Source: a virus
Length of the DNA stretch: 64,000 bases
IMG/VR virus record: IMGVR_UViG_3300021197_001653
Coordinates: 32,001-96,000 of that record
Direction: 5' to 3' (one strand)
The notes beneath the pieces are model-generated. The model ran no database searches, was not told where the DNA came from, and was given only the letters and a program-made list of their open reading frames with translations. Shown piece by piece: positions 49,415 through 63,832 of this stretch (position 1 is the stretch's first letter; each line of letters begins with the position of its first letter). The translations under genes and the position numbers were made by a program.

Positions 49415-50173
49415 TTATATAAATATTTTTGACCAATCTACTGTAATCTTACCTGATTGATCAGATTCTGCAACCACTAACTCTTTATCTTTTAAATGTT
49501 CACTTCTTGAACCTGATAATAAGTTTTGTGATGCTGCAAAATTAATTATTGTTTTATTCTCTTTTCTATAGAGATACCCAACACTGTCTACTTTTGAACA
49601 AAGAATTGAAGACATTCTACCTGTTAAGGCTAAACCTCTTTCATTCATTTCTTTGCCATTTTCTTCAACTAATTTATCTTTAACATGACCCATTATTAAT
49701 AATGTATCACATATTGATTCTAAATCATTTATTGTTTGGGATAAAGCTAGTCTAGTATATCTATAACCTGCACCGTTAGGTAAATCTGTTACATCTAGAC
49801 CTTTCCAATTTCGTCCCATTGTTGTATCTCTATACATCTTATTAGCTAATGGTAATACTATATCTTCTAATGCTGTTACTGTATCTATTGCTATGTATTT
49901 ATAAACATAACCTTTTTTTTTCATGTTAGCATCGTTAATACTATTAATTAACTTTTTTAATGTAATAATAGGTAAACATTTGTCTATATTAGATTGATGA
50001 ATCACATCATATTTTAAGGCATCAACAAAGTTGGTTCCTTCTTCTAAATCTATAATAAGACAATTGTCTAATCCTGCTAAAGCCGTAGTCTTACCCATTT
50101 TAGGTTGACTAAAGATAATCATACTTTTAGGATTAACTCTATTAGCTTTAATTTTTACTTGTGGTAATTCCAT
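49415..50173 (-). CDS. AAA_24 / Sak4-like ATPase
   Basis: QPKMGKTT, IDLE.G, AIDT and GH motifs. Confidence 0.8.
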   Translation of the reverse strand: MELPQVKIKANRVNPKSMIIFSQPKMGKTTALAGLDNCLIIDLEEGTNFVDALKYDVIHQSNIDKCLPIITLKKLINSINDANMKKKGYVYKYIAIDTVTALEDIVLPLANKMYRDTTMGRNWKGLDVTDLPNGAGYRYTRLALSQTINDLESICDTLLIMGHVKDKLVEENGKEMNERGLALTGRMSSILCSKVDSVGYLYRKENKTIINFAASQNLLSGSRSEHLKDKELVVAESDQSGKITVDWSKIFI

Positions 50174-50208: not shown

Positions 50209-50676
50209 TTATGTGGTTATAAATTCAGAGTATCTTATATTACAATTAACAAAACCTTGACCTTTAAAAGTACGACTAGGTCTAGTTGTAATTATATCTT
50301 TAAATCCAAATGAATAAAAGTTTTCACCATGAAAATTATCTTTCCTTATGTTTGGGCAATATATAAAACTTAATGATCTATTTTTAGTTTTTAATGTATC
50401 TTCCAATTCAATAATTTTAGTAAATATGGTATTTATTTTTGTTTCTGGATAATAGAATTTAACTAGTTTAATTATATCATCTAGTGAACGATATCTTCTT
50501 GCACCACAATGTCTACCTCCTCTAGTGTATACTGTTGTATTCTCACCTGTGGTAAATATTGTTTCTTTTATAATCTGTTCAATACTAGATACTTCAATAT
50601 CTCTAAATTTAATTTTCCTACATTGAGAGTAATATTGTTCAACATCCTCTCGTGTTATTACTTCTCTTTTTGTCAT
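50209..50676 (-). CDS. Hypothetical protein, probable paralogue of intron ORFs 60095 and 62194
   Basis: Shared C...R.RS..D/E and C..I.K..F motifs. Confidence 0.55.
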   Translation of the reverse strand: MTKREVITREDVEQYYSQCRKIKFRDIEVSSIEQIIKETIFTTGENTTVYTRGGRHCGARRYRSLDDIIKLVKFYYPETKINTIFTKIIELEDTLKTKNRSLSFIYCPNIRKDNFHGENFYSFGFKDIITTRPSRTFKGQGFVNCNIRYSEFITT

Positions 50677-54446: not shown

Positions 54447-55988
54447 TTAATTATTTTTTATTCTATCTCTAATTTCAAAGAGACTTACTTGATTATATAA
54501 TTGTCCATCTTGGAATATTACTTTAAGTTCACCTTTAGCTTCAGATTCCCAATCTTGTTCATTTAATAGAACATACTTACCATCTGTTTCAATAACTGAT
54601 AATAAACCTTTAGCTGATTTCTTAGAACCATCTCCAGTTTTAGGGTCTTTAAATATAGATTTACCTACTTTGATAATATCTGGCATTCCTGATGAACATA
54701 CATTTTTAAAACATTCCTTTTTAAATTCTACATATGTAGCTTTAAAAGCTTGACCATGGCTATCTCTAGTATTAAATTGATAAGTAAAACTACCAATTCC
54801 AGCTACCCAATTAATAGAAGCAAAACCTTTATCCATTAATCTTTGGCAGATTTGATTAGCTCTATCATAAGTAATAGCATCACCATATATTAATCCTACA
54901 TGTTCATCTAAAAGTTTAAAACCTTTTTCTGTTTCTGTAGTACCAAATATTTCAGATAATATTTCAATAGCACCTTTATGTTCAGGTGTATCAGGTATAT
55001 TTTTATAATCACCACAAATAATATCTACTGGATTACCACTATCAGGTCTAAATACTACTTTACCATTTCTAGCCATAATAGCTTCTTTTCTCTGAGGAAC
55101 TACTTCTGTTAAAAATTTCCAGAAATCAAATCCATCACAAACTATTGAAACAATACCTGTTGGAAACTTTTCTAAAATAGCATCTAAATAAGCTAATTCT
55201 TCTCCATCTTTAGGATTAAAATAAGCACATTGAACTGAATGTTCTGTTGCAGGGACACTAGTTTGTACTAAATTAAATTTATCCCAATCGTTCTGACCTG
55301 AATCATAATAATATTGAGCATCTAAATAAGATGAAACTGTATCTCCACCACTAAATGATGTATCGTGCCCTAAACCTATTGAACTTGATGCTTCCCAACC
55401 AAAGTCTCCTCTGGCACTAAAATCATGTCCTTGAAATTGAACAAAATCAGTATTACCTACTGTTTTTATTGCATAATCTTCAAATAATAATCTATAATCA
55501 TTAGCTATAGTAGCTGTAGTAACTTGATGCCATATTTCAGATGACATATAAGTTTCTAAGTAATTGGTTAACCAATAACATTTTGGATCAGTATTATACA
55601 TTGTCATGTATGGTACTCCAAATGGCACTTTAGAACCCTCTGGTAAACCTTTGATAACTAATGGTAAATAACCTAATTTATGTAAATAAGATAAATGATC
55701 TACAGCATATTCAGCACCAGTGAATGATGTTAATTGCTTTTTAATAAAATTCATTACATCATCATGTGGTAAGTCAAAGAAATCTTGAAATTTATCTTTC
55801 AATAATCTCACTAGTCTTTGTTGACCAAATGATATTACATAATCTTTATTAGGTCCTTTATAATGTTTACAATGTCTTGCTGTTGCATTACTATACACAG
55901 TTACTGTATTAGATGGATACATTTGTCTATGAAACAATTTATATGCGTCTAATAATAATACTATTAATCTTAAGTGTTCTCTTTTCAT
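54447..55988 (-). CDS. nadV: Nicotinamide phosphoribosyltransferase homologue (Nampt/Namat)
   Basis: DAYK, HDFSARG, VPATEHS, FRPDSG, GLIYGD and KDP.T..KKSAKG motifs. Confidence 0.92.
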   Translation of the reverse strand: MKREHLRLIVLLLDAYKLFHRQMYPSNTVTVYSNATARHCKHYKGPNKDYVISFGQQRLVRLLKDKFQDFFDLPHDDVMNFIKKQLTSFTGAEYAVDHLSYLHKLGYLPLVIKGLPEGSKVPFGVPYMTMYNTDPKCYWLTNYLETYMSSEIWHQVTTATIANDYRLLFEDYAIKTVGNTDFVQFQGHDFSARGDFGWEASSSIGLGHDTSFSGGDTVSSYLDAQYYYDSGQNDWDKFNLVQTSVPATEHSVQCAYFNPKDGEELAYLDAILEKFPTGIVSIVCDGFDFWKFLTEVVPQRKEAIMARNGKVVFRPDSGNPVDIICGDYKNIPDTPEHKGAIEILSEIFGTTETEKGFKLLDEHVGLIYGDAITYDRANQICQRLMDKGFASINWVAGIGSFTYQFNTRDSHGQAFKATYVEFKKECFKNVCSSGMPDIIKVGKSIFKDPKTGDGSKKSAKGLLSVIETDGKYVLLNEQDWESEAKGELKVIFQDGQLYNQVSLFEIRDRIKNN

Positions 55989-55989
55989 G

Positions 55990-56886
55990 TTAAAAATTAT
56001 AAATTAGAAATTCAGATATATGCATTGGTTTCATCATTAAATGTTTTACATTCTCTAATGTAGCATGTGTATCATCTATTAATGTTACTTGATGTTTTTT
56101 TAATTTGTAAAATTGACGCAAATTTTCAAGCATTTCTGCTTTATGTCTACCAGAATTTACAAAATGTCTACGATCTTTTGGTATATTATAATGTTTATCT
56201 AACCATTTCATTTTTTCAATATAAGAAAATGAATTTGGTATAGCTGATAAAATATACAATTTATGTTTTGCTGGGTCTAAAGCATTTAATTTATCTATCA
56301 CCATTTGTACAGGTGGTAAATATTTAAATAATTGACTGTTAACAAAATCTATTTTACCATTTATTTTAGGTAAAGTAGTTAATGCAGCTAATACACCATC
56401 CATATCTATAAAAATATGTTCATGTGTAAAAAATTCTATAACTGATATTTTATTAACTAAATTAGATAATATTTGAAATTGGGCATTTTCTTTTGCAGAT
56501 TTTTCTATAATAGCTTCAACAGGAACTTTTCTTTCCCTAATTGAATTTCTTTTTAAACACACTTCAATAGGTGTTTTAATATGTATTAATTCTACATAAT
56601 AACCTTTTTCTTGAAGCATTTTTATAATTCTTGTTGTATAAGAATTATTAATACCTCCACCGTCCATTATCAATTGTATTTTTTCATCTGATAATAAATT
56701 CATAACTTTTTCAGCTTTCTTAACACTCCATTCATGAAGTAAAAAAGCTTTATTTGGGTTATAATCTTTATGAGATTCCTTATATGCATCTGCTGACACA
56801 ATCTTATAATCTCTTACATTATCTTCCACATTAAGCCAGGAACTTTTACCTGCTAATGGAAGACCCATTAAAATTTTTGCTTTCAT
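55990..56886 (-). CDS. P-loop kinase (AAA_33) fused to a HAD 5'(3')-nucleotidase
   Basis: GLPLAGKS and R...RERKVP, then IDMDGVLA, K..WL and LIDD. Confidence 0.82.
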   Translation of the reverse strand: MKAKILMGLPLAGKSSWLNVEDNVRDYKIVSADAYKESHKDYNPNKAFLLHEWSVKKAEKVMNLLSDEKIQLIMDGGGINNSYTTRIIKMLQEKGYYVELIHIKTPIEVCLKRNSIRERKVPVEAIIEKSAKENAQFQILSNLVNKISVIEFFTHEHIFIDMDGVLAALTTLPKINGKIDFVNSQLFKYLPPVQMVIDKLNALDPAKHKLYILSAIPNSFSYIEKMKWLDKHYNIPKDRRHFVNSGRHKAEMLENLRQFYKLKKHQVTLIDDTHATLENVKHLMMKPMHISEFLIYNF

Positions 56887-56893
56887 TTTTTAT

Positions 56894-57052
56894 TTATTTT
56901 TTAATCCATTTATTAAAAACTACGGGATAATTCTTAACATTATCAACACTTTTTGGTGTTTTACCACATTTACATTTTGGTATTGACATTGCAAATCGTT
57001 CTATTTTTATTATTTGTTTACAACAAGTATATAATCTTGGTTTACCATACAT
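56894..57052 (-). CDS. Small Cys-rich 52-aa ORF not in the track
   Basis: MYGKPRLYTCCK...PKCKCGK fills the gap between prs and the kinase gene. Confidence 0.5.
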   Translation of the reverse strand: MYGKPRLYTCCKQIIKIERFAMSIPKCKCGKTPKSVDNVKNYPVVFNKWIKK

Positions 57053-57053
57053 A

Positions 57054-57908
57054 TTAAAACATTTTTATAATTTCTAAATTTTTAGGCATACCTTTAATTA
57101 TATCAGAACCACCTTTTTCTCTAACTTCTTGATAATGATAAGTATCAAATTTACTATTAGTTGTAAATACTTTATCAAAATAATTAGTAACTGGATCATT
57201 ACCTAAATCTTGTACAGTCATATGACTTACAGCTAAATAGAGTTTGCCCACGTTACAATCTTTTAACATAGTAGCTAATCCTTTAAAAGTACCACCATAT
57301 ACAGATATATCATCTATAATAAGGATATCTTTACCTCCAAAATTAATTCTTGGTAAATTTTGACTTAATTTAGTTTTACCATCTTTATCATAAGTACGTG
57401 ACTTACTTGCAGAAGCTGTTTCCCCCTTCCAATCTAACTTTTCACAAAGTTTCATTAAAGGTTTAAATCCACCCGCATCAGAAGACATTAATATTAAACT
57501 TTCTACAAAATCTTTTTTTGAACCTTTAATATCTTTAGCACGTTTAATCATTACTCTTTTAATAAAATCACTGTTATCAATAATCTCTACATTATCCATC
57601 ATAGCTTCTACTACTTCAGGATTATGTGGATGAAATATCTTGAAATTAGCGTTTATCCCATTAAGAAATTTACATACTAATTTTAAACCACTTGATTCTC
57701 CTGTATTAAATCTTCTATCTGCTTGAGCATCTAATAAATTTGGTATGATTATAGTAGGTTTATTTTTATGTACATTCCAATAAGCATCCACTGCTTGATT
57801 TAAGTGCCATAAACTTTCATAACCATTTATTCTAAATGAATTATTATGTAATCCAACAGATATATTATTTACATAACTACTCCCATCTGGGTATTTGTTT
57901 ATTTCCAT
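57054..57908 (-). CDS. prs: PRPP synthetase homologue (Prs/Adps)
   Basis: YPDG, QADRRF, HPH, SDAGG, IIDDISVYGGTF and LAVSH motifs. Confidence 0.9.
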   Translation of the reverse strand: MEINKYPDGSSYVNNISVGLHNNSFRINGYESLWHLNQAVDAYWNVHKNKPTIIIPNLLDAQADRRFNTGESSGLKLVCKFLNGINANFKIFHPHNPEVVEAMMDNVEIIDNSDFIKRVMIKRAKDIKGSKKDFVESLILMSSDAGGFKPLMKLCEKLDWKGETASASKSRTYDKDGKTKLSQNLPRINFGGKDILIIDDISVYGGTFKGLATMLKDCNVGKLYLAVSHMTVQDLGNDPVTNYFDKVFTTNSKFDTYHYQEVREKGGSDIIKGMPKNLEIIKMF

Positions 57909-59139: not shown

Positions 59140-60087
59140 TTATCTTATTGTATTTACAAAATCATAAACTTGTTTCATATTTACTTCATCTTTTGGTAAA
59201 GGTAGCTCTTTAAAGTAATTCACTGCACCATCAAAATATAATGGGCAGATAGTACCAGCACCGCCTTCTCTACCACCTAAAATTTCTAAGAATCTAATAT
59301 TATCTTTAAAAAATCTAATATCATAATCTTTGTATTCAGGTATTTCATGTCTAAAAGGATTAAATAATCCTAATATAACATCAGCATCTCTCTGGGTAAG
59401 TTTACAATCCCCTAATCCATCTAAACTAGGTTTAAGCTTGTTAGCTTTAAAATTATCTAAACTCTCTTGAGAAGATGCTTGCTGTTGTATTACTACAAGT
59501 GAATATTTATATTTGTTACGTAGTCTAATTAAATAATCTGACGATAATTTAACAATAGATGCATGTAAACCCATTTGTTTACCATCTATACTCTCCGTGG
59601 AGATTAAACTAATATGGTCAATAAAAACCATAACATATTCATCTGGATCATTTGGTTCATAATAATCATCAATCTCTTTTTCAAAGAGCTCACCTGTTTT
59701 ATTATTTACAAATTCAACTTTCTTAGTATGTTGTGTTCCATTATTAACCGCATATTCTCTAACAAATTTATATATACCTGTTGGATTTCTAATATCATCA
59801 ATGAATTCAACTATTTCTTCAATTTTCTCAAAATAAGGTTTATATTTCTCAATAACTTCTAATACGTTATCTGGTAATACATTATCTTCCTTGGTACTTC
59901 TTAAATCTTTAGGTGCTATTCTTATTCCCTCTTTTACATAAAGTATATTAGAGAATGCTGATAACATTTTTTGTTCTTTAGACATCTCTAAAGTAAAATA
60001 AAATATTTTTAATCTTATGTTTAAGTCGTTATCTACGACTTGTTGAATAGTATTATACAGATAAAGCCAATCAGCTATCTGCGTTTT
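59140..60087 (-). CDS. dnaB: DnaB-like replicative helicase, exon 2 (begins KTQIAD; the track's TTG start is the intron 3' end)
   Basis: YFTLEM, FIDHISL, IQQ, DAD and REG motifs; starts with the second half of Walker A. Confidence 0.9.
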   Translation of the reverse strand, partial: KTQIADWLYLYNTIQQVVDNDLNIRLKIFYFTLEMSKEQKMLSAFSNILYVKEGIRIAPKDLRSTKEDNVLPDNVLEVIEKYKPYFEKIEEIVEFIDDIRNPTGIYKFVREYAVNNGTQHTKKVEFVNNKTGELFEKEIDDYYEPNDPDEYVMVFIDHISLISTESIDGKQMGLHASIVKLSSDYLIRLRNKYKYSLVVIQQQASSQESLDNFKANKLKPSLDGLGDCKLTQRDADVILGLFNPFRHEIPEYKDYDIRFFKDNIRFLEILGGREGGAGTICPLYFDGAVNYFKELPLPKDEVNMKQVYDFVNTIR

Positions 60088-60094
60088 CAATTTG

Positions 60095-60487
60095 TTACTT
60101 ATTAAATATAGAATTGTATAGATTTTCTAAATACTCTGGTGTATATTTACCATAATTTGAAAATCTAAAGGTGTTTTTATACCTATTAGTTACTCGTTCT
60201 TCAGATACACACCAAAATTTATGTTTATGAGTATATTTGAAAAACACTATATTTTTAATATCAGGGCATCTATATGCTCTAAATTGTTGTGATACTAAGC
60301 ATTCCATTAATAATGCTTCACTCACACCTTTAAATCTATATAATTTAAATAAATCTCCAAAAGTTCTTCTTGCATATATTTTATCATCATTTTTAAAAAG
60401 TTTAAATTTAAAATAATCTAAAACTACATTTCTAGGTCTACTTGGGCATTTATTATTTAAGTCCTTTATTAATTCTTCTTTATTCAT
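60095..60487 (-). CDS. Intron-borne hypothetical protein in loop L9.2
   Basis: Closed by a 13-bp inverted repeat, 60492-60504 / 60101-60113; its last codons form the 3' strand. Confidence 0.65.
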   Translation of the reverse strand: MNKEELIKDLNNKCPSRPRNVVLDYFKFKLFKNDDKIYARRTFGDLFKLYRFKGVSEALLMECLVSQQFRAYRCPDIKNIVFFKYTHKHKFWCVSEERVTNRYKNTFRFSNYGKYTPEYLENLYNSIFNK

Positions 60488-60561
60488 TTTTTTCTATATT
60501 TAATTGGTTCAGTCATTTCTGCTGAACTCTATAATTTATAATAAAAAAATATAAAAATTAA

Positions 60562-61203
60562 TTAATCAACACAATTTAATAACCATGTTTTAATAGTATT
60601 ACCACTGTTGCTATTTATAGCTGTTTCATGAGAGTCTGTTAACTCTTCTAACCCAGTATCAACAATACTAAAACGATTATGATTTGTATTTGTAGATAAC
60701 ACTGCCATACAACTAGTGTTCTCTTTAATTAATTCAAAACAAGTTTTAGATATATGTGTTGTTAATTCACGTCTTTCCTCTGCATTTATAGTATTAAACC
60801 TTTGACCAAAGTTATAAATAGATGTAGAAAAAGCATTTAAATTATATATTTGATTTACACCACAACTAATCTCTGAACCACTTAAAGATAAACTGGGGCT
60901 AGCATTATAATTTCTTCTACCAACATTATATGTGATATCAAAATCATATGCACGACCTACATCCATATTAATAACAAGCGCTTCTTTAATAGAATCTAAT
61001 GTTGGATTAACAACAGGTTCTTCTACTACTTCCTCAACAATTGCTTGTCTAATTTCTTCAAATAATTTCTTTGAATAAGAAGCTATTTTATTCTTATCAT
61101 TTTCTATATTATACATATCTCTTGTACTCCCTAATATAATATAAGGATTACCTTTTGTTAATGCATAATTTTTAGCATTAATACAAGTTACTTGTTTTGC
61201 CAT
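60562..61203 (-). CDS. Intron-borne hypothetical protein in loop L9
   Basis: Enclosed by CTATAA (61243-61238) / TTATAG (60534-60529). Confidence 0.7.
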   Translation of the reverse strand: MAKQVTCINAKNYALTKGNPYIILGSTRDMYNIENDKNKIASYSKKLFEEIRQAIVEEVVEEPVVNPTLDSIKEALVINMDVGRAYDFDITYNVGRRNYNASPSLSLSGSEISCGVNQIYNLNAFSTSIYNFGQRFNTINAEERRELTTHISKTCFELIKENTSCMAVLSTNTNHNRFSIVDTGLEELTDSHETAINSNSGNTIKTWLLNCVD

Positions 61204-61262
61204 TTTAATTAATTTTTTAAATTTTTATTGTTTATATTTATAGTTCGGACTGTCTCATCAAC

Positions 61263-61520
61263 CTAACTACACATACATGTATTGTCTCCTCCACATTTAC
61301 ATTCATTAGGTTGCTCATTGTCAGTCTCTACACCGTTTTGTAATTTTTTTAATATTAAATATTTAATATCCTTAAAAGGAGTATCTTTTTCAATATCCTT
61401 TTTTACTAGAGATATTAAATAACCAATATCTTTATTATCAATTGACGGCACGGGATTGTCTTTAATTTTGTCATTTTTTATGACACTTTTAACTTGCTCA
61501 CTATTTTTATCGCTAGTCAT
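61263..61520 (-). CDS. Possible 85-aa protein overlapping the ribozyme core
   Basis: ATG overlaps the upstream TGA; frame is open through Q, P6, R and P8. Confidence 0.45.
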   Translation of the reverse strand: MTSDKNSEQVKSVIKNDKIKDNPVPSIDNKDIGYLISLVKKDIEKDTPFKDIKYLILKKLQNGVETDNEQPNECKCGGDNTCMCS

Positions 61521-62155
61521 TTTATTCTAGGTATTAATAAATTTCTTTGTAATTCTGCATATTTTTCAGATTTACTTACCATTAATTTAATAGTACTTAT
61601 CGTTAACTTATTTTTAGAAACAGGTTTAAATAAATTATTTATATAACCATTTGTATTCAATTTGTCAATAAATTGATTCCAGCTTCTATATGTATAAAAA
61701 TGATTTAGTCTATTATTTACAGGTACAACATCCATACTATTACGAATACTTGAACCACCACTTGAATAATGGGCTAATAAAATAGCATTATATGGTTTCA
61801 CACCATTATCTATCAAATCAACCATTTTAACTAATATTTTCTTTAATGTTCTAGTTCTAACATACCTACATAATTTAAAAAAGATTCTTTGATTTTTATT
61901 TTTAAATTTAATTTTACTTTCAAATATAAAACTTTCTTCTTTAATATTATGCAATTGCATTATTTTATCAAATTTCTTAAATAAAGTAATTAATAAAGTA
62001 CATTCTTCTTTACTACCTGTAAATTTATGAATATGGTGATTTTGATAACCATCACTACAATTCATATACATATGTATACTATATACATTACCACTACGCC
62101 ATTTATTATTACACGATGATGGTATTCTAGTCATTTTTGTTAAACTTGTTGCCAT
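61517..62155 (-). CDS. Intron-borne hypothetical protein in loop L5
   Basis: Lies between the P5 strands at 62173-62167 and 61465-61459. Confidence 0.7.
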   Translation of the reverse strand: MATSLTKMTRIPSSCNNKWRSGNVYSIHMYMNCSDGYQNHHIHKFTGSKEECTLLITLFKKFDKIMQLHNIKEESFIFESKIKFKNKNQRIFFKLCRYVRTRTLKKILVKMVDLIDNGVKPYNAILLAHYSSGGSSIRNSMDVVPVNNRLNHFYTYRSWNQFIDKLNTNGYINNLFKPVSKNKLTISTIKLMVSKSEKYAELQRNLLIPRIK

Positions 62156-62193
62156 TTTTTATTTTTTTAAAGAGTTTCCCCGTTAGCTAATAT

Positions 62194-62676
62194 TTATAAA
62201 TTTAATTGATCATTTCGTATATCAATTAATTGATTATACGAAATACCATCCACTCCTACTTTCTCACCAAAGTATTTTTTACTATAATTGGTGATGAAAT
62301 TTTTTCTACAAGGATTATCCTTACTAAACCCACCTACAACAACAAACTTATTTACTTGGGTACACCATACTAAATAGCATCTATTATCATGATTTAATTC
62401 TGCTACTATTCTGATTACTGCGTCAATAGTTGTTATTGGAAACCTACTTCTAACGATAGAAGTTAATTCAGATATAGACCTACTTGATGATCTATTACAT
62501 TGAATATTACCATTCTTGTGATATGTGTTTGGTCTTTTTTCTAAAAATTGTCTTAAGAAACTTTTTCTTGTCTTTGTTAATGGAATATCTGTTTCATTAA
62601 CATAAATTATTTTCGTGATAGTTTTCATTCTTATTATTAATATTAACCTCCAAAAATATCTAATAACTTTTTTCAT
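62194..62676 (-). CDS. Intron-borne hypothetical protein inserted just 5' of P4
   Basis: Stop codon lies about 10 nt before the P4 5' strand; probable paralogue of 50209. Confidence 0.7.
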   Translation of the reverse strand: MKKVIRYFWRLILIIRMKTITKIIYVNETDIPLTKTRKSFLRQFLEKRPNTYHKNGNIQCNRSSSRSISELTSIVRSRFPITTIDAVIRIVAELNHDNRCYLVWCTQVNKFVVVGGFSKDNPCRKNFITNYSKKYFGEKVGVDGISYNQLIDIRNDQLNL

Positions 62677-62705
62677 GTTATTTATTTAAAAGTTAGATTG
62701 TTTAT

Positions 62706-63611
62706 TTATTTTTTTATTGATGCATATGCTTCTGGCATCACACTTCTTTCTGCAAAATTTATAAATGGTTCTACTGCTTCCGATTTTGTTTTAGATAAAT
62801 CAGCTATAGCTTCTTCCATTAATCTTCCTTTTTTTTCTTCTTTGGAATTCTGAGTTTTAAGATTATTTTCTTTTGATACTTCTTTTTCTATTTTTTTTTC
62901 ATTTAATACATGTTCTCCAGGATTAAAATGATATACATTTATTGTATTTTTGGAATTATTATTAACATACGAGTATTGCAATTGAAATCCTAATCTTTCA
63001 ACAAAATCTTTTGCGGTACTTTGGTTATCTGTAATATGTGCAATTTTTGCAGCTCTATCAACATTTAAATGATCAAAGATAATTTTATAATCACTTATTA
63101 TTAAATTTTTATATCTACAATATACACCACTACTATTCTCAAAGTTAAATAATATTTGACAACCACAACAATCTGAATGTGGTGTTTGTTTAAATAAACT
63201 TATACCCGGTCCATTATTTTTAAATATTGATAGTTTACCATTAGAATCTTTTATACGAACAAATGAGGTATCACTAATACTTATTTGACTACTTCGTGAA
63301 TTTGAATTTGTTACTTTTAAATGTCTTTGATACCACGGTTCATTTAATACCATATCATTTTCATTTATTATTCTATTTATTATAACGCCATCAGATAGTT
63401 TTAAACCTTCTCGTATATGAAATGCCCATGAATATGTATATAATTCAGTTATAGGATGTTTAGAATTAGCAGGCCGACTACCTTTTTTATTATTTTGAAA
63501 AAAATAATATAGATTATTTAATTTAATTACATGACCTATTGTATATGTGCCATTAATACTTCCTTCTACATGTATCTGATCATTATCTGATAATTTTTCT
63601 AGTTCTTTCAT
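62706..63611 (-). CDS. Intron-borne hypothetical protein downstream of P2 (probable P2.1 loop)
   Basis: Flanked by AGAUU (63623-63619) / AAUCU (62699-62695); shares motifs with 60562. Confidence 0.7.
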   Translation of the reverse strand: MKELEKLSDNDQIHVEGSINGTYTIGHVIKLNNLYYFFQNNKKGSRPANSKHPITELYTYSWAFHIREGLKLSDGVIINRIINENDMVLNEPWYQRHLKVTNSNSRSSQISISDTSFVRIKDSNGKLSIFKNNGPGISLFKQTPHSDCCGCQILFNFENSSGVYCRYKNLIISDYKIIFDHLNVDRAAKIAHITDNQSTAKDFVERLGFQLQYSYVNNNSKNTINVYHFNPGEHVLNEKKIEKEVSKENNLKTQNSKEEKKGRLMEEAIADLSKTKSEAVEPFINFAERSVMPEAYASIKK

Positions 63612-63661
63612 TTTTTATAATCTTTTTTCCATATATATTACTATATACAGGGGCAAAATCT

Positions 63662-63832
63662 ACCCACTTTACTATTCGCTGTTATAAGATAATATTTACC
63701 TTTTTCTATACCAGGTAATTCATTTTCAAATCTTGGTAAACCCCATGGTATACAATTTACCTTTCCAGATAGAATTCTATTTTTTCTATCTACTAAATTT
63801 TCATAAACTCTACTATATAATGTCTTTTTCAT
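63662..63832 (-). CDS. dnaB: DnaB-like helicase, exon 1 (MKKTLY...IPWGLPRFE..LPGIEKGKYYLITANSKVG)
   Basis: Typical DnaB pre-Walker-A segment ending at VG; joined with exon 2 it gives a 372-aa protein. Confidence 0.9.

Follow-up and report, generated by a model that had tools for sequence, protein, structure and literature searches.

A probable multi-gene group I intron in the P-loop codons of the DnaB-like helicase gene of a marine crAss-like phage

We analyzed a stretch of 64,000 nt (hereafter the window; bases 32001-96000 of the 104,434-bp IMG/VR virus record IMGVR_UViG_3300021197_001653; 27% G+C) from a marine crAss-like phage, in which the gene of a DnaB-like replicative helicase is split into two exons. 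The gene and the insert that splits it lie on the minus strand, and all positions are those of the window. Exon 1 (63662..63832), delimited using the open reading frame (ORF) list and the sequence, has ~57 codons, with M18 as its probable start and ...ANSKVG as its end, and its length and N-terminus agree with those of intact homologues of 370-374 amino acids (aa). Exon 2 (59140..60087) comprises 315 codons beginning with KTQIADW (KTQIADWLYL...), and gene callers give it as a 316-aa ORF that starts at the intron-terminal TTG. Exon 2 matches phrog_19 (DnaB-like replicative helicase, E 1.1e-7) and is the sole match of this family in a search of the whole 104-kb genome. The Pfam profile PF03796, which is present in intact relatives of the helicase, had zero matches over the whole genome, the split helicase gene included. 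The best helicase matches in the phage collection all belong to Crassvirales; among cultured phages the closest is Cellulophaga phage phi14:2 (Steigviridae, 55% identity), and the homologues of gut crAss-like phages, annotated there as 'replicative DNA helicase', are 42-49% identical. Genes of primase, a Sak4-like ATPase and NAD salvage form a replication module together with the helicase gene.

The insert, here called intron B (60088..63661), is 3574 nt long and extends from the first base after the U at position -1 to a terminal G (omega-G) at 60088. Exon 1 ends with GTGGGT at 63662, and exon 2 begins with AAAACG at 60087. The frame of exon 1 reads ...GKYYLITANSKVG (...YYLITANSKVG), continues as RFCPCI and then meets a TAG stop codon within the intron. 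Across the junction the Walker A motif GxxxxGK[ST] of the RecA-type core is regained as ANSKVG|KTQ. This in-frame joining of 63662 to 60087 had been proposed in a first-pass annotation of the window, along with a search for intron-less dnaB alleles in related phages. Such alleles were indeed found. Six uninterrupted homologues of 370-381 aa (P0020, P0032, P0045, P0054, P0068 and P0091) and an intron-less locus (L005) read ...ANSKVGKTQIADW... unbroken through the junction, and therefore the junction lies exactly as first placed, between G and K. Of the 120 database homologues that match best, ~100 were called as genes of 276-339 aa, mostly with a start at the exon 2 boundary, and 16 have the intact length of 370-381 aa. 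The split form of the helicase predominates in the clade.

The pieces of a group I ribozyme, i.e. its paired (P), joining (J) and loop (L) regions, were located between six ORFs (a to f). Their order is P1/P10 guide, P2, ORF a, P3 5' strand and hairpin, ORF b, P4 and P5 5' strands, and ORF c, followed by P5', P4', P6, P7, P3', P8, P7', P9 5' strand and ORF e, and finally by P9 3' strand and P9.1, P9.2 5' arm, ORF f, P9.2 3' arm and AAGUAACAAAUUG; ORF d overlaps the core. The internal guide sequence (63651..63658) is contiguous (UUUU-GCCC), as in canonical introns. Its UUUU (63658-63655) pairs with AAAA of exon 2 to give P10, and its GCCC (63654-63651) pairs with GGGU, the last four bases of exon 1, to give P1 with a U-G wobble at the splice site. 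The P2 hairpin (63629..63650) has 9 bp and a GUAA tetraloop and contains the in-frame TAG at which translation from exon 1 terminates. The P element (62167..62183) consists of the P4 5' strand ACGGGG (62183-62178), J4/5 AAA(C) and the P5 5' strand UCUUUAA (62173-62167). The contiguous core (61248..61465) includes P5' (61465-61459), P4' (61455-61450), P6 (61449-61445/61336-61332, with an L6 of ~110 nt), J6/7 GUA, P7 (61326-61322), P3' (61317-61314), P8 (61313-61306/61266-61259), J8/7 AUGAGA and P7' (61252-61248). It is followed by J7/9 CGAA and the P9 5' strand CUAUAA (61238..61243), which pairs with UUAUAG at 60534-60529. This P9 3' strand and P9.1, GUUCAG-CAGAAAUGA-CUGAAC (60527-60507), make up the segment 60507..60534. 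P9.2 is an exact 13-bp complement (60504-60492/60113-60101); its 3' arm UUCUAUAUUUAAU (60113-60101) and the 3' tail AAGUAACAAAUUG with the terminal G occupy 60088..60113, and the window copy ends in GUAACAAAUUG. The tail is kept in most copies of the intron and in a compact homologue described below. Thus all helices drawn in the first-pass annotation (P1, P10, P2, P4-P9, P9.1 and P9.2) were recovered at their original positions, and P3 was added to them. The P3 5' strand CUCA (62854-62851) and the hairpin that follows it form the segment 62821..62855 (motif AAACUCAGAAU; hairpin GAAUUCC...GGAAGAUU), and the partner of CUCA is UGAG at 61317-61314.

For comparison we used 18 copies of intron B, i.e. 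those of the window (WIN), eleven IMG/VR loci, five Tara or JGI loci and phi14:2 (loci are numbered with three digits, as in L044). The copies range in length from 1783 to 3574 nt; pairs of P3-P8 were counted on the 15 copies of the main type (13 for P3). Both exons are intact; their proteins are 68-81% identical among metagenomic relatives that have the intron, and the value for phi14:2 is 55%. This phage (L041, NC_021806.1 12766-19674) has the same architecture, in which g024 corresponds to exon 1, g025-g028 to four intron ORFs and g029 to exon 2. In its current annotation g024 is 'hypothetical', the start of 'g029 DnaB' is set 33 codons too late, and the intron is missing. Misassembly of the locus, which had been named as an observation that would speak against an intron, was considered and rejected, since the same architecture occurs in 18 independent assemblies, including the finished genome of the cultured phage phi14:2.

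The U before the 5' splice site and the terminal G are present in 18/18 copies. In P1, GGGU/GCCC is replaced by UUGGU/GCCAA in L007 and L019 and by UGGGU/GCUCA in L025, and in P10 UUUU/AAAA is replaced by GAUUU/AAAUC in phi14:2, where exon 2 starts with AAAUCA. The stem of P2 varies among copies while its loop stays GUAA (GUGA in L047). P3 occurs as CUCA/UGAG, UUCA/UGAA, UUCC/GGAA and CUUA/UGAG and is fully paired in 12 of 13 copies. P5, whose strands are 47-1061 nt apart, occurs as UCUUUA/UAAAGA, CCAUUA/UAAUGG, CCUUUA/UAAAGG and UCAU/AUGA, with UA/CG, UA/AU and AU/UA swaps. Further changes were observed in P4 (one GC to AU, in L004), P6 (CG to UA, GU to GC), P7 (GC in 10 copies, AU in 5) and P8 (CG, GC and GU). 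P9 pairs across the L9 ORF as CUAUAA/UUAUAG, CUAUGA/UCAUAG (L042, L046) or CUGUAA/UUACAG (L047), and is a closed, GUGA-capped hairpin in L003, L008, L031 and L039. P9.1 has nine different stem sequences over 10 copies (L045 and L046 being the same) and one common loop, CAGAAAUGA. The strands of P3, P5 and P9 are thus separated by 0.05-1.5 kb across genes, yet they show compensatory changes. In a 14-sequence MAFFT alignment, 97.1% of the cells of P6, P7 and P8 are paired versus 14-42% when the partner strand is slid by 1-3 columns. The covariation score of these helices is 0.138 versus 0.079 in shuffled alignments and was reached by 0/500 shuffles, although such figures overstate independence because the sequences are related; several of the changes nonetheless clearly arose separately, on different branches. 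A loss of the pairings in homologues, which the first-pass annotation had regarded as contrary evidence, was looked for; the pairings are kept in 14-18 copies via compensatory changes, which occur in every helix from P1 to P10.

The ribozyme pieces also stand out by primary sequence, as short DNA blocks that are 80-96% identical between copies whose ORF proteins are only 25-45% identical; the P element block is 84-87% identical between otherwise diverged copies. These conserved blocks correspond to the classical elements P UUAGCUAACGGGGAAACUCUUUAA, Q AAAGACAAUCCCGUGCCGUC, R ACGGUGUAGAGACUGACAAUGAG and S GGUUGAUGAGACAGUCCGAAC, and each of the four motifs is found once in the whole genome. The canonical order of AACGGGGAAA, AAUCCCGUGCC, GUAGAGACUGA and AUGAGACAGUCC is kept, with hairpins or ORFs inserted between the P3 5' strand and P4.

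By a pattern search with the S element we found a compact, G+C-rich, ORF-less intron of 330 nt in other phages (L020, L022, L026 and L028). This compact homologue is recognized by the Rfam group I intron model RF00028 (L022:1043-1278; 107.6 bits, E 3.7e-29). It has in common with intron B the GCCCC guide, the GUAA loop of P2, CAAAC...GAAU after P2, the S element used as search pattern, the P9.1 loop CAGAAAUGA and the tail GUAACAAAAUG. The same ribozyme family was also observed in other genes of other phages (L021/L030, L032, L035 and L037), in A+T-rich versions that again have an ORF across the core.

In the Rfam alignment of the compact homologue, ACCCGGU forms the P3 5' strand and is followed by J3/4 GAAUU and then by P4; the P3 5' strand motif of the window is the counterpart of this annotated P3 plus J3/4. 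Since P3, GAAUU and P4 are adjacent in the compact intron and AAAYUYM-GAAU is set apart from P4 in intron B, either by an ORF or by one or two hairpins, the latter intron has an insertion inside J3/4. The insertion contains two hairpins between the P3 5' strand with GAAU and P4, one of them GNRA-capped and the second an ORF slot (window 62821-62855; in relatives, e.g. L014:8002-8050). To our knowledge, this P3-to-P4 insertion of hairpins and an ORF matches no described group I subgroup. A candidate P3 5' strand directly upstream of P4 (UUAGCU) was rejected, as it covaries with nothing between P7 and P8. P7.1 and P7.2, by which subgroup IA (T4 td-like) is recognized, are absent from the main type, where only ACAA separates P7 from P3'. 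An insert at this position is present in the compact homologue and in the subtype formed by L007, L019 and L025.

The intron-less alleles, the P, Q, R and S elements, the covariation and the 107.6-bit homologue all agree with the original proposal that the helicase Walker A motif is interrupted by a multi-gene group I intron whose core is scattered between genes. Thus, intron B is very probably a real group I intron that is greatly enlarged and splits the P-loop codons (G|K) of this phage's single DnaB-like helicase gene. Several observations weigh against this reading. Splicing in vivo is deduced from sequence, and no ligated junction has been observed. Rfam cmscan of the window with RF00028 (E up to 10) gave no group I match, and the scores of relatives are weak, i.e. 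11.8 and 10 bits on L044, which has a contiguous core and a closed P5, and 19.8 bits on the L007 copy. These scores are below the gathering threshold of the model (50 bits), at which nothing was found on L014, L053, L036, L004 and L008 either. P3 has only 4 bp, with hairpins or ORFs between its 5' strand and P4. The covariation is based on 13-18 related sequences, and changes inherited by several copies were counted repeatedly. Finally, ribosomes translating ORF d, across P4-P8, and ORF a, through the P3 strand, would unfold the core.

Six ORFs, and not the five originally counted, were found in intron B; the sixth is the 85-aa ORF d at 61263-61520, which overlaps the core. The sites first assigned in L5, L9 and L9.2 were upheld, and two were revised: the ORF placed before P4 (ORF b) lies inside the J3/4 insertion, and the ORF placed in a probable L2.1 (ORF a) lies between P2 and P3, with a frame that runs through the P3 strand. 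ORF a (62706..63611; 301 aa, family 4) covers the P3 5' strand and the following hairpin with its last 70 codons, and its homology to the L044 ORF stops at aa 230. ORF b (62194..62676; 160 aa, family 0) occupies the J3/4 insertion between the P3 5' strand and P4, and its AlphaFold2 model (predicted local distance difference test, pLDDT, 88) has weak winged-helix matches only. ORF c (61517..62155; 212 aa, family 5) fills L5, and the P5 strands are accordingly 726 nt apart in the window versus 47 nt in L044, where L5 is closed. ORF e (60562..61203; 213 aa, family 2) lies in L9. Its AlphaFold2 model (pLDDT 88) combines an N-terminal SH3-like domain with a GNAT-like fold, and VIA-align gave Z scores of up to 8.6 to GNAT acetyltransferases (residues 75-213) and ~7.4 to SH3 domains (residues 1-55); the Foldseek E was about 5e-3. 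ORF f (60095..60487; 130 aa, family 6) lies in L9.2 and ends in codons that make up the 3' arm of P9.2.

ORF d (61263..61520; 85 aa, family 1) has an ATG that overlaps the TGA of ORF c (ATGA); it covers the core from P5' onwards and stops at a TAG in P8'. Its frame is open over 67-184 codons in 14/15 main-type copies, where the other two frames are open over 3-30 codons, and is also open in the introns of the same family in other genes (L030, L032, L035 and L037). In many copies its C-terminus, encoded in L8, is Cys-rich (CxC...CxC). Such a long open frame in DNA of 27% G+C is not due to chance; the core is therefore either dual-coding or, at a minimum, maintained as an open frame.

When all intron ORFs were clustered with Blast, they fell into 13 families and 7 singletons. 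The number of ORFs per copy varies from 2 to 6, at differing sites. Even the sister copies WIN and L044, whose helicases are 80% identical, have different cargo at three sites. Family 0 has 15 members, found in the 5' region, L5 and L9.2, often two per intron. No paralogue of an intron ORF was found in the genome by tblastn; a later profile search gave one, for family 0. This free-standing paralogue (window 50209-50676, minus strand; hmmsearch E 1.3e-11) adjoins the Sak4-like ATPase gene (49415-50173). The NAD-salvage genes lie directly downstream of the helicase gene (54447-57908, minus strand) and include those of nicotinamide phosphoribosyltransferase (phrog_448, E 2e-157) and ribose-phosphate pyrophosphokinase (phrog_619), with a polynucleotide-kinase-like gene between the two.

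None of the window ORFs and of the representatives of ten other cargo families matched a meaningful Pfam or PHROG family, and no homing-endonuclease family of Pfam or PHROGs was matched by any tested intron ORF. As a positive control, an ORF of a neighboring intron (intron A, see below) was read as GIY-YIG plus NUMOD1 by the same searches. Profile searches of families 0, 2 and 5 against the sequences of the PDB gave nothing relevant. Two candidate assignments were tried and found no support. The LAGLIDADG reading of ORF c is a weak lead (Atlas score 0.82-0.83), and the alignment of its family has no LAGLIDADG motif. A domain shared by ORFs a and e (SCG, STN and NSGN motifs) obtained 17% probability in hhalign, for the C-terminal motif only.

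In several relatives a second group I intron, intron A, lies 9 nt upstream of intron B, following the ANS codons (L004:3230-4427; L007:3904-4943, in L007/L012; L008:4265-4788, in L008/L011; L036, reverse complement); the window is without intron A. Intron A of L007 scores 96.5 bits with RF00028, and the L004 copy encodes the GIY-YIG plus NUMOD1 endonuclease. The two introns leave a micro-exon of 9 nt, AAAGTGGGT (KVG or KIG), between them, which is therefore expressible only if both are spliced. Further inserts of ~1 kb were observed in exon 2 of the helicase gene in L014 (10421-11545, aa 104/105) and L053 (2061-3079, near aa 31-38). On a tree of exon 2 proteins (FastTree, midpoint root), intron B is present throughout the clade down to phi14:2, with one tight intron-less cluster (L005, L048-L050) nested inside. 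The simplest reading of this distribution is that intron B was gained long ago, descended vertically and was removed in a single, precise event. On the same tree the occurrence of intron A is scattered, as would be expected of a homing element.

Based on this anatomy, we propose the following course of expression. Transcription of the helicase gene would run through intron B, and ribosomes coming from exon 1 would halt at the TAG in P2. The ribozyme would form by long-range pairing of the short segments that lie between, and partly inside, the six ORFs (P1/P10, P2, P3, P4-P5-P6, P7-P8 and P9-P9.1-P9.2). Guanosine would then attack the position that follows the U-G pair of P1, docking of the terminal G in P7 would come next, and P10 would align exon 2. 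Ligation of the exons would yield an mRNA that encodes a helicase of ~372 aa, in which the GKT Walker A motif is intact; for phi14:2 the predicted ligated junction is ...AAAGTGGGT|AAATCACAA... (GGGU|AAAUCA). The peripheral sites J2/3, the J3/4 insertion, L5, L6/L8, L9 and L9.2 would serve as tolerant slots in which unrelated small genes are gained, lost and moved. The first-pass annotation had described intron B as a gene-landing scaffold. This part of its proposal fits the variation of cargo in number, family and site while the ribozyme pieces stay 80-96% identical, and the occurrence of one family at three sites and outside the intron. Its other part, that accessory-gene expression is tied to replication and that selection for this tie keeps the scaffold, is conceivable. 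A link between translation of the intron ORFs and folding of the ribozyme may exist as well. It can be speculated, although we regard this as rather unlikely, that intron B is a long-lived gene harbor and not a selfish homing element, with a dual-coding core, in which ORF translation competes with folding and thereby gates the sole replicative helicase through the translation state or timing of the cargo.

Other classes of insert were set aside: an intein by the stop codons and the lack of an in-frame ORF, a group II intron by the absence of GUGYG...AY ends, and translational bypass by a length of 3.6 kb, which is far too long. Among the explanations that accept the ribozyme, the one we hold possible, if clearly short of probable, is that it is real but not autonomous and that folding over 3.5 kb needs a cofactor, either a maturase-like protein, for which ORF d is the obvious candidate, or a host chaperone. 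Some group I introns do depend on maturases or CYT-18-type cofactors, and the shortness of P3, the insertion in J3/4 and the upkeep of the ORF d frame, in 14/15 main-type copies and in introns of the same family elsewhere, would fit such a dependence. However, ORF d matches no maturase or LAGLIDADG family in Pfam or PHROGs, varies widely outside its core-encoded parts and has the Cys-rich C-terminus in some copies only. We find it improbable that the insert is composite, with ORF cassettes that are separate mobile elements or nested, twintron-like introns, removed or transcribed independently. The cargo families do change sites, family 0 is also free-standing, and individual ORFs are flanked by the stems P5, P9 and P9.2; but these stems belong to the normal helices of the outer ribozyme and are capped by tetraloops where a copy is without the ORF, the P, Q, R and S motifs are single in the genome, and Rfam sees no second intron in the window.

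A non-splicing relic, i.e. a dead helicase gene in a phage that uses the host DnaB or another helicase, would account for the failure of the Rfam model on intron B and is in keeping with splicing not having been observed. It is very hard to reconcile with intact exons at 68-81% protein identity in metagenomic relatives and 55% in phi14:2, with ribozyme segments that covary and are far better conserved than the surrounding ORFs, and with the presence of the intron in a cultured phage, phi14:2; we consider it most improbable. The same low credence is given to trans-splicing of separate transcripts, in which internal promoters or terminators would break the pre-mRNA in the ORF-bearing loops. Group I introns split in peripheral loops trans-splice in some organelles, and each ORF is preceded by an A/T-rich spacer. 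Nevertheless, no terminator-like site was found on the coding strand of the intron, and promoter-like sites occur at the frequency expected from shuffled sequences in a scan that does not model crAss or Bacteroidota promoters.

The expanded group I intron that we favor resembles the known phage introns of T4 (td, nrdB and nrdD), SPO1 and Twort (IA), as well as the compact homologue, in its location within a conserved catalytic motif of a DNA-metabolism gene. With them it also shares the U-G pair at the 5' splice site, the terminal G, the contiguous P10-P1 guide, the P, Q, R and S elements, GNRA-capped P2 and P9, a P9.1 extension and an early stop codon. However, those introns are 0.25-1 kb long and have zero or one homing-endonuclease ORF in a single loop, whereas intron B is 1.8-3.6 kb long, has 2-6 ORFs, of families without a recognizable endonuclease, at up to six or seven sites, contains the J3/4 insertion, lacks P7.1/P7.2 in the main type and has one ORF that overlaps the core. 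Another giant group I intron, hexacoral mitochondrial ND5-717, harbors many functional genes, has to fold across kilobases of coding RNA and is long-lived and vertically inherited. Its cargo consists of standard mitochondrial genes, all in one loop (P8); intron B differs in having accessory cargo that is distributed over many loops and junctions and turns over quickly.

Several ORFs within one group I intron have been described in the mitochondrial cob gene of Exserohilum turcicum, where five non-overlapping LAGLIDADG ORFs were found, and an intron database reports at most five endonuclease ORFs, in a single fungal mitochondrial intron (PMC11835236). Unlike the cob intron, intron B resides in a phage, and its ORFs belong to mutually unrelated families without a recognizable endonuclease. 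In Delta- and Zeta-group crAss-like phages, group I introns recognized by their endonuclease domains interrupt the genes of MCP, PolB, primase, ATP_43b and TerL, and the alpha-gamma group was stated to lack such insertions (Yutin et al. 2021, PMC7886860). These introns are like intron B in belonging to the same viral order and in interrupting core replication and structural genes; the paper makes no mention of an intron at the DnaB Walker A motif in the marine phi14:2-like lineage (PMC7886860). In the open-access text searched, we found no published phage group I intron with several non-endonuclease genes over different loops, nor the phi14:2 helicase intron.

The usual picture of a group I ribozyme is that of a compact RNA in which a single loop can accommodate a single ORF. 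Intron B is surprising to specialists, as it appears to withstand six or seven interruptions, one of them in J3/4, and in addition a coding frame across P4-P8. Despite these interruptions it is expected to rebuild an essential P-loop, which would widen the known structural tolerance of the group I fold. The 18 copies with different cargo represent natural loop-insertion variants for the study of long-range RNA folding under coupled transcription and translation, and the cultured pair of Cellulophaga baltica #14 and phi14:2 makes the question of splicing directly testable. As covariance-model searches miss intron B, surveys of phage introns probably undercount introns of this kind. Intron B also explains the annotation of DnaB in the phi14:2-like marine Crassvirales, where it appears as two unrelated genes separated by 4-6 'hypothetical' ones.

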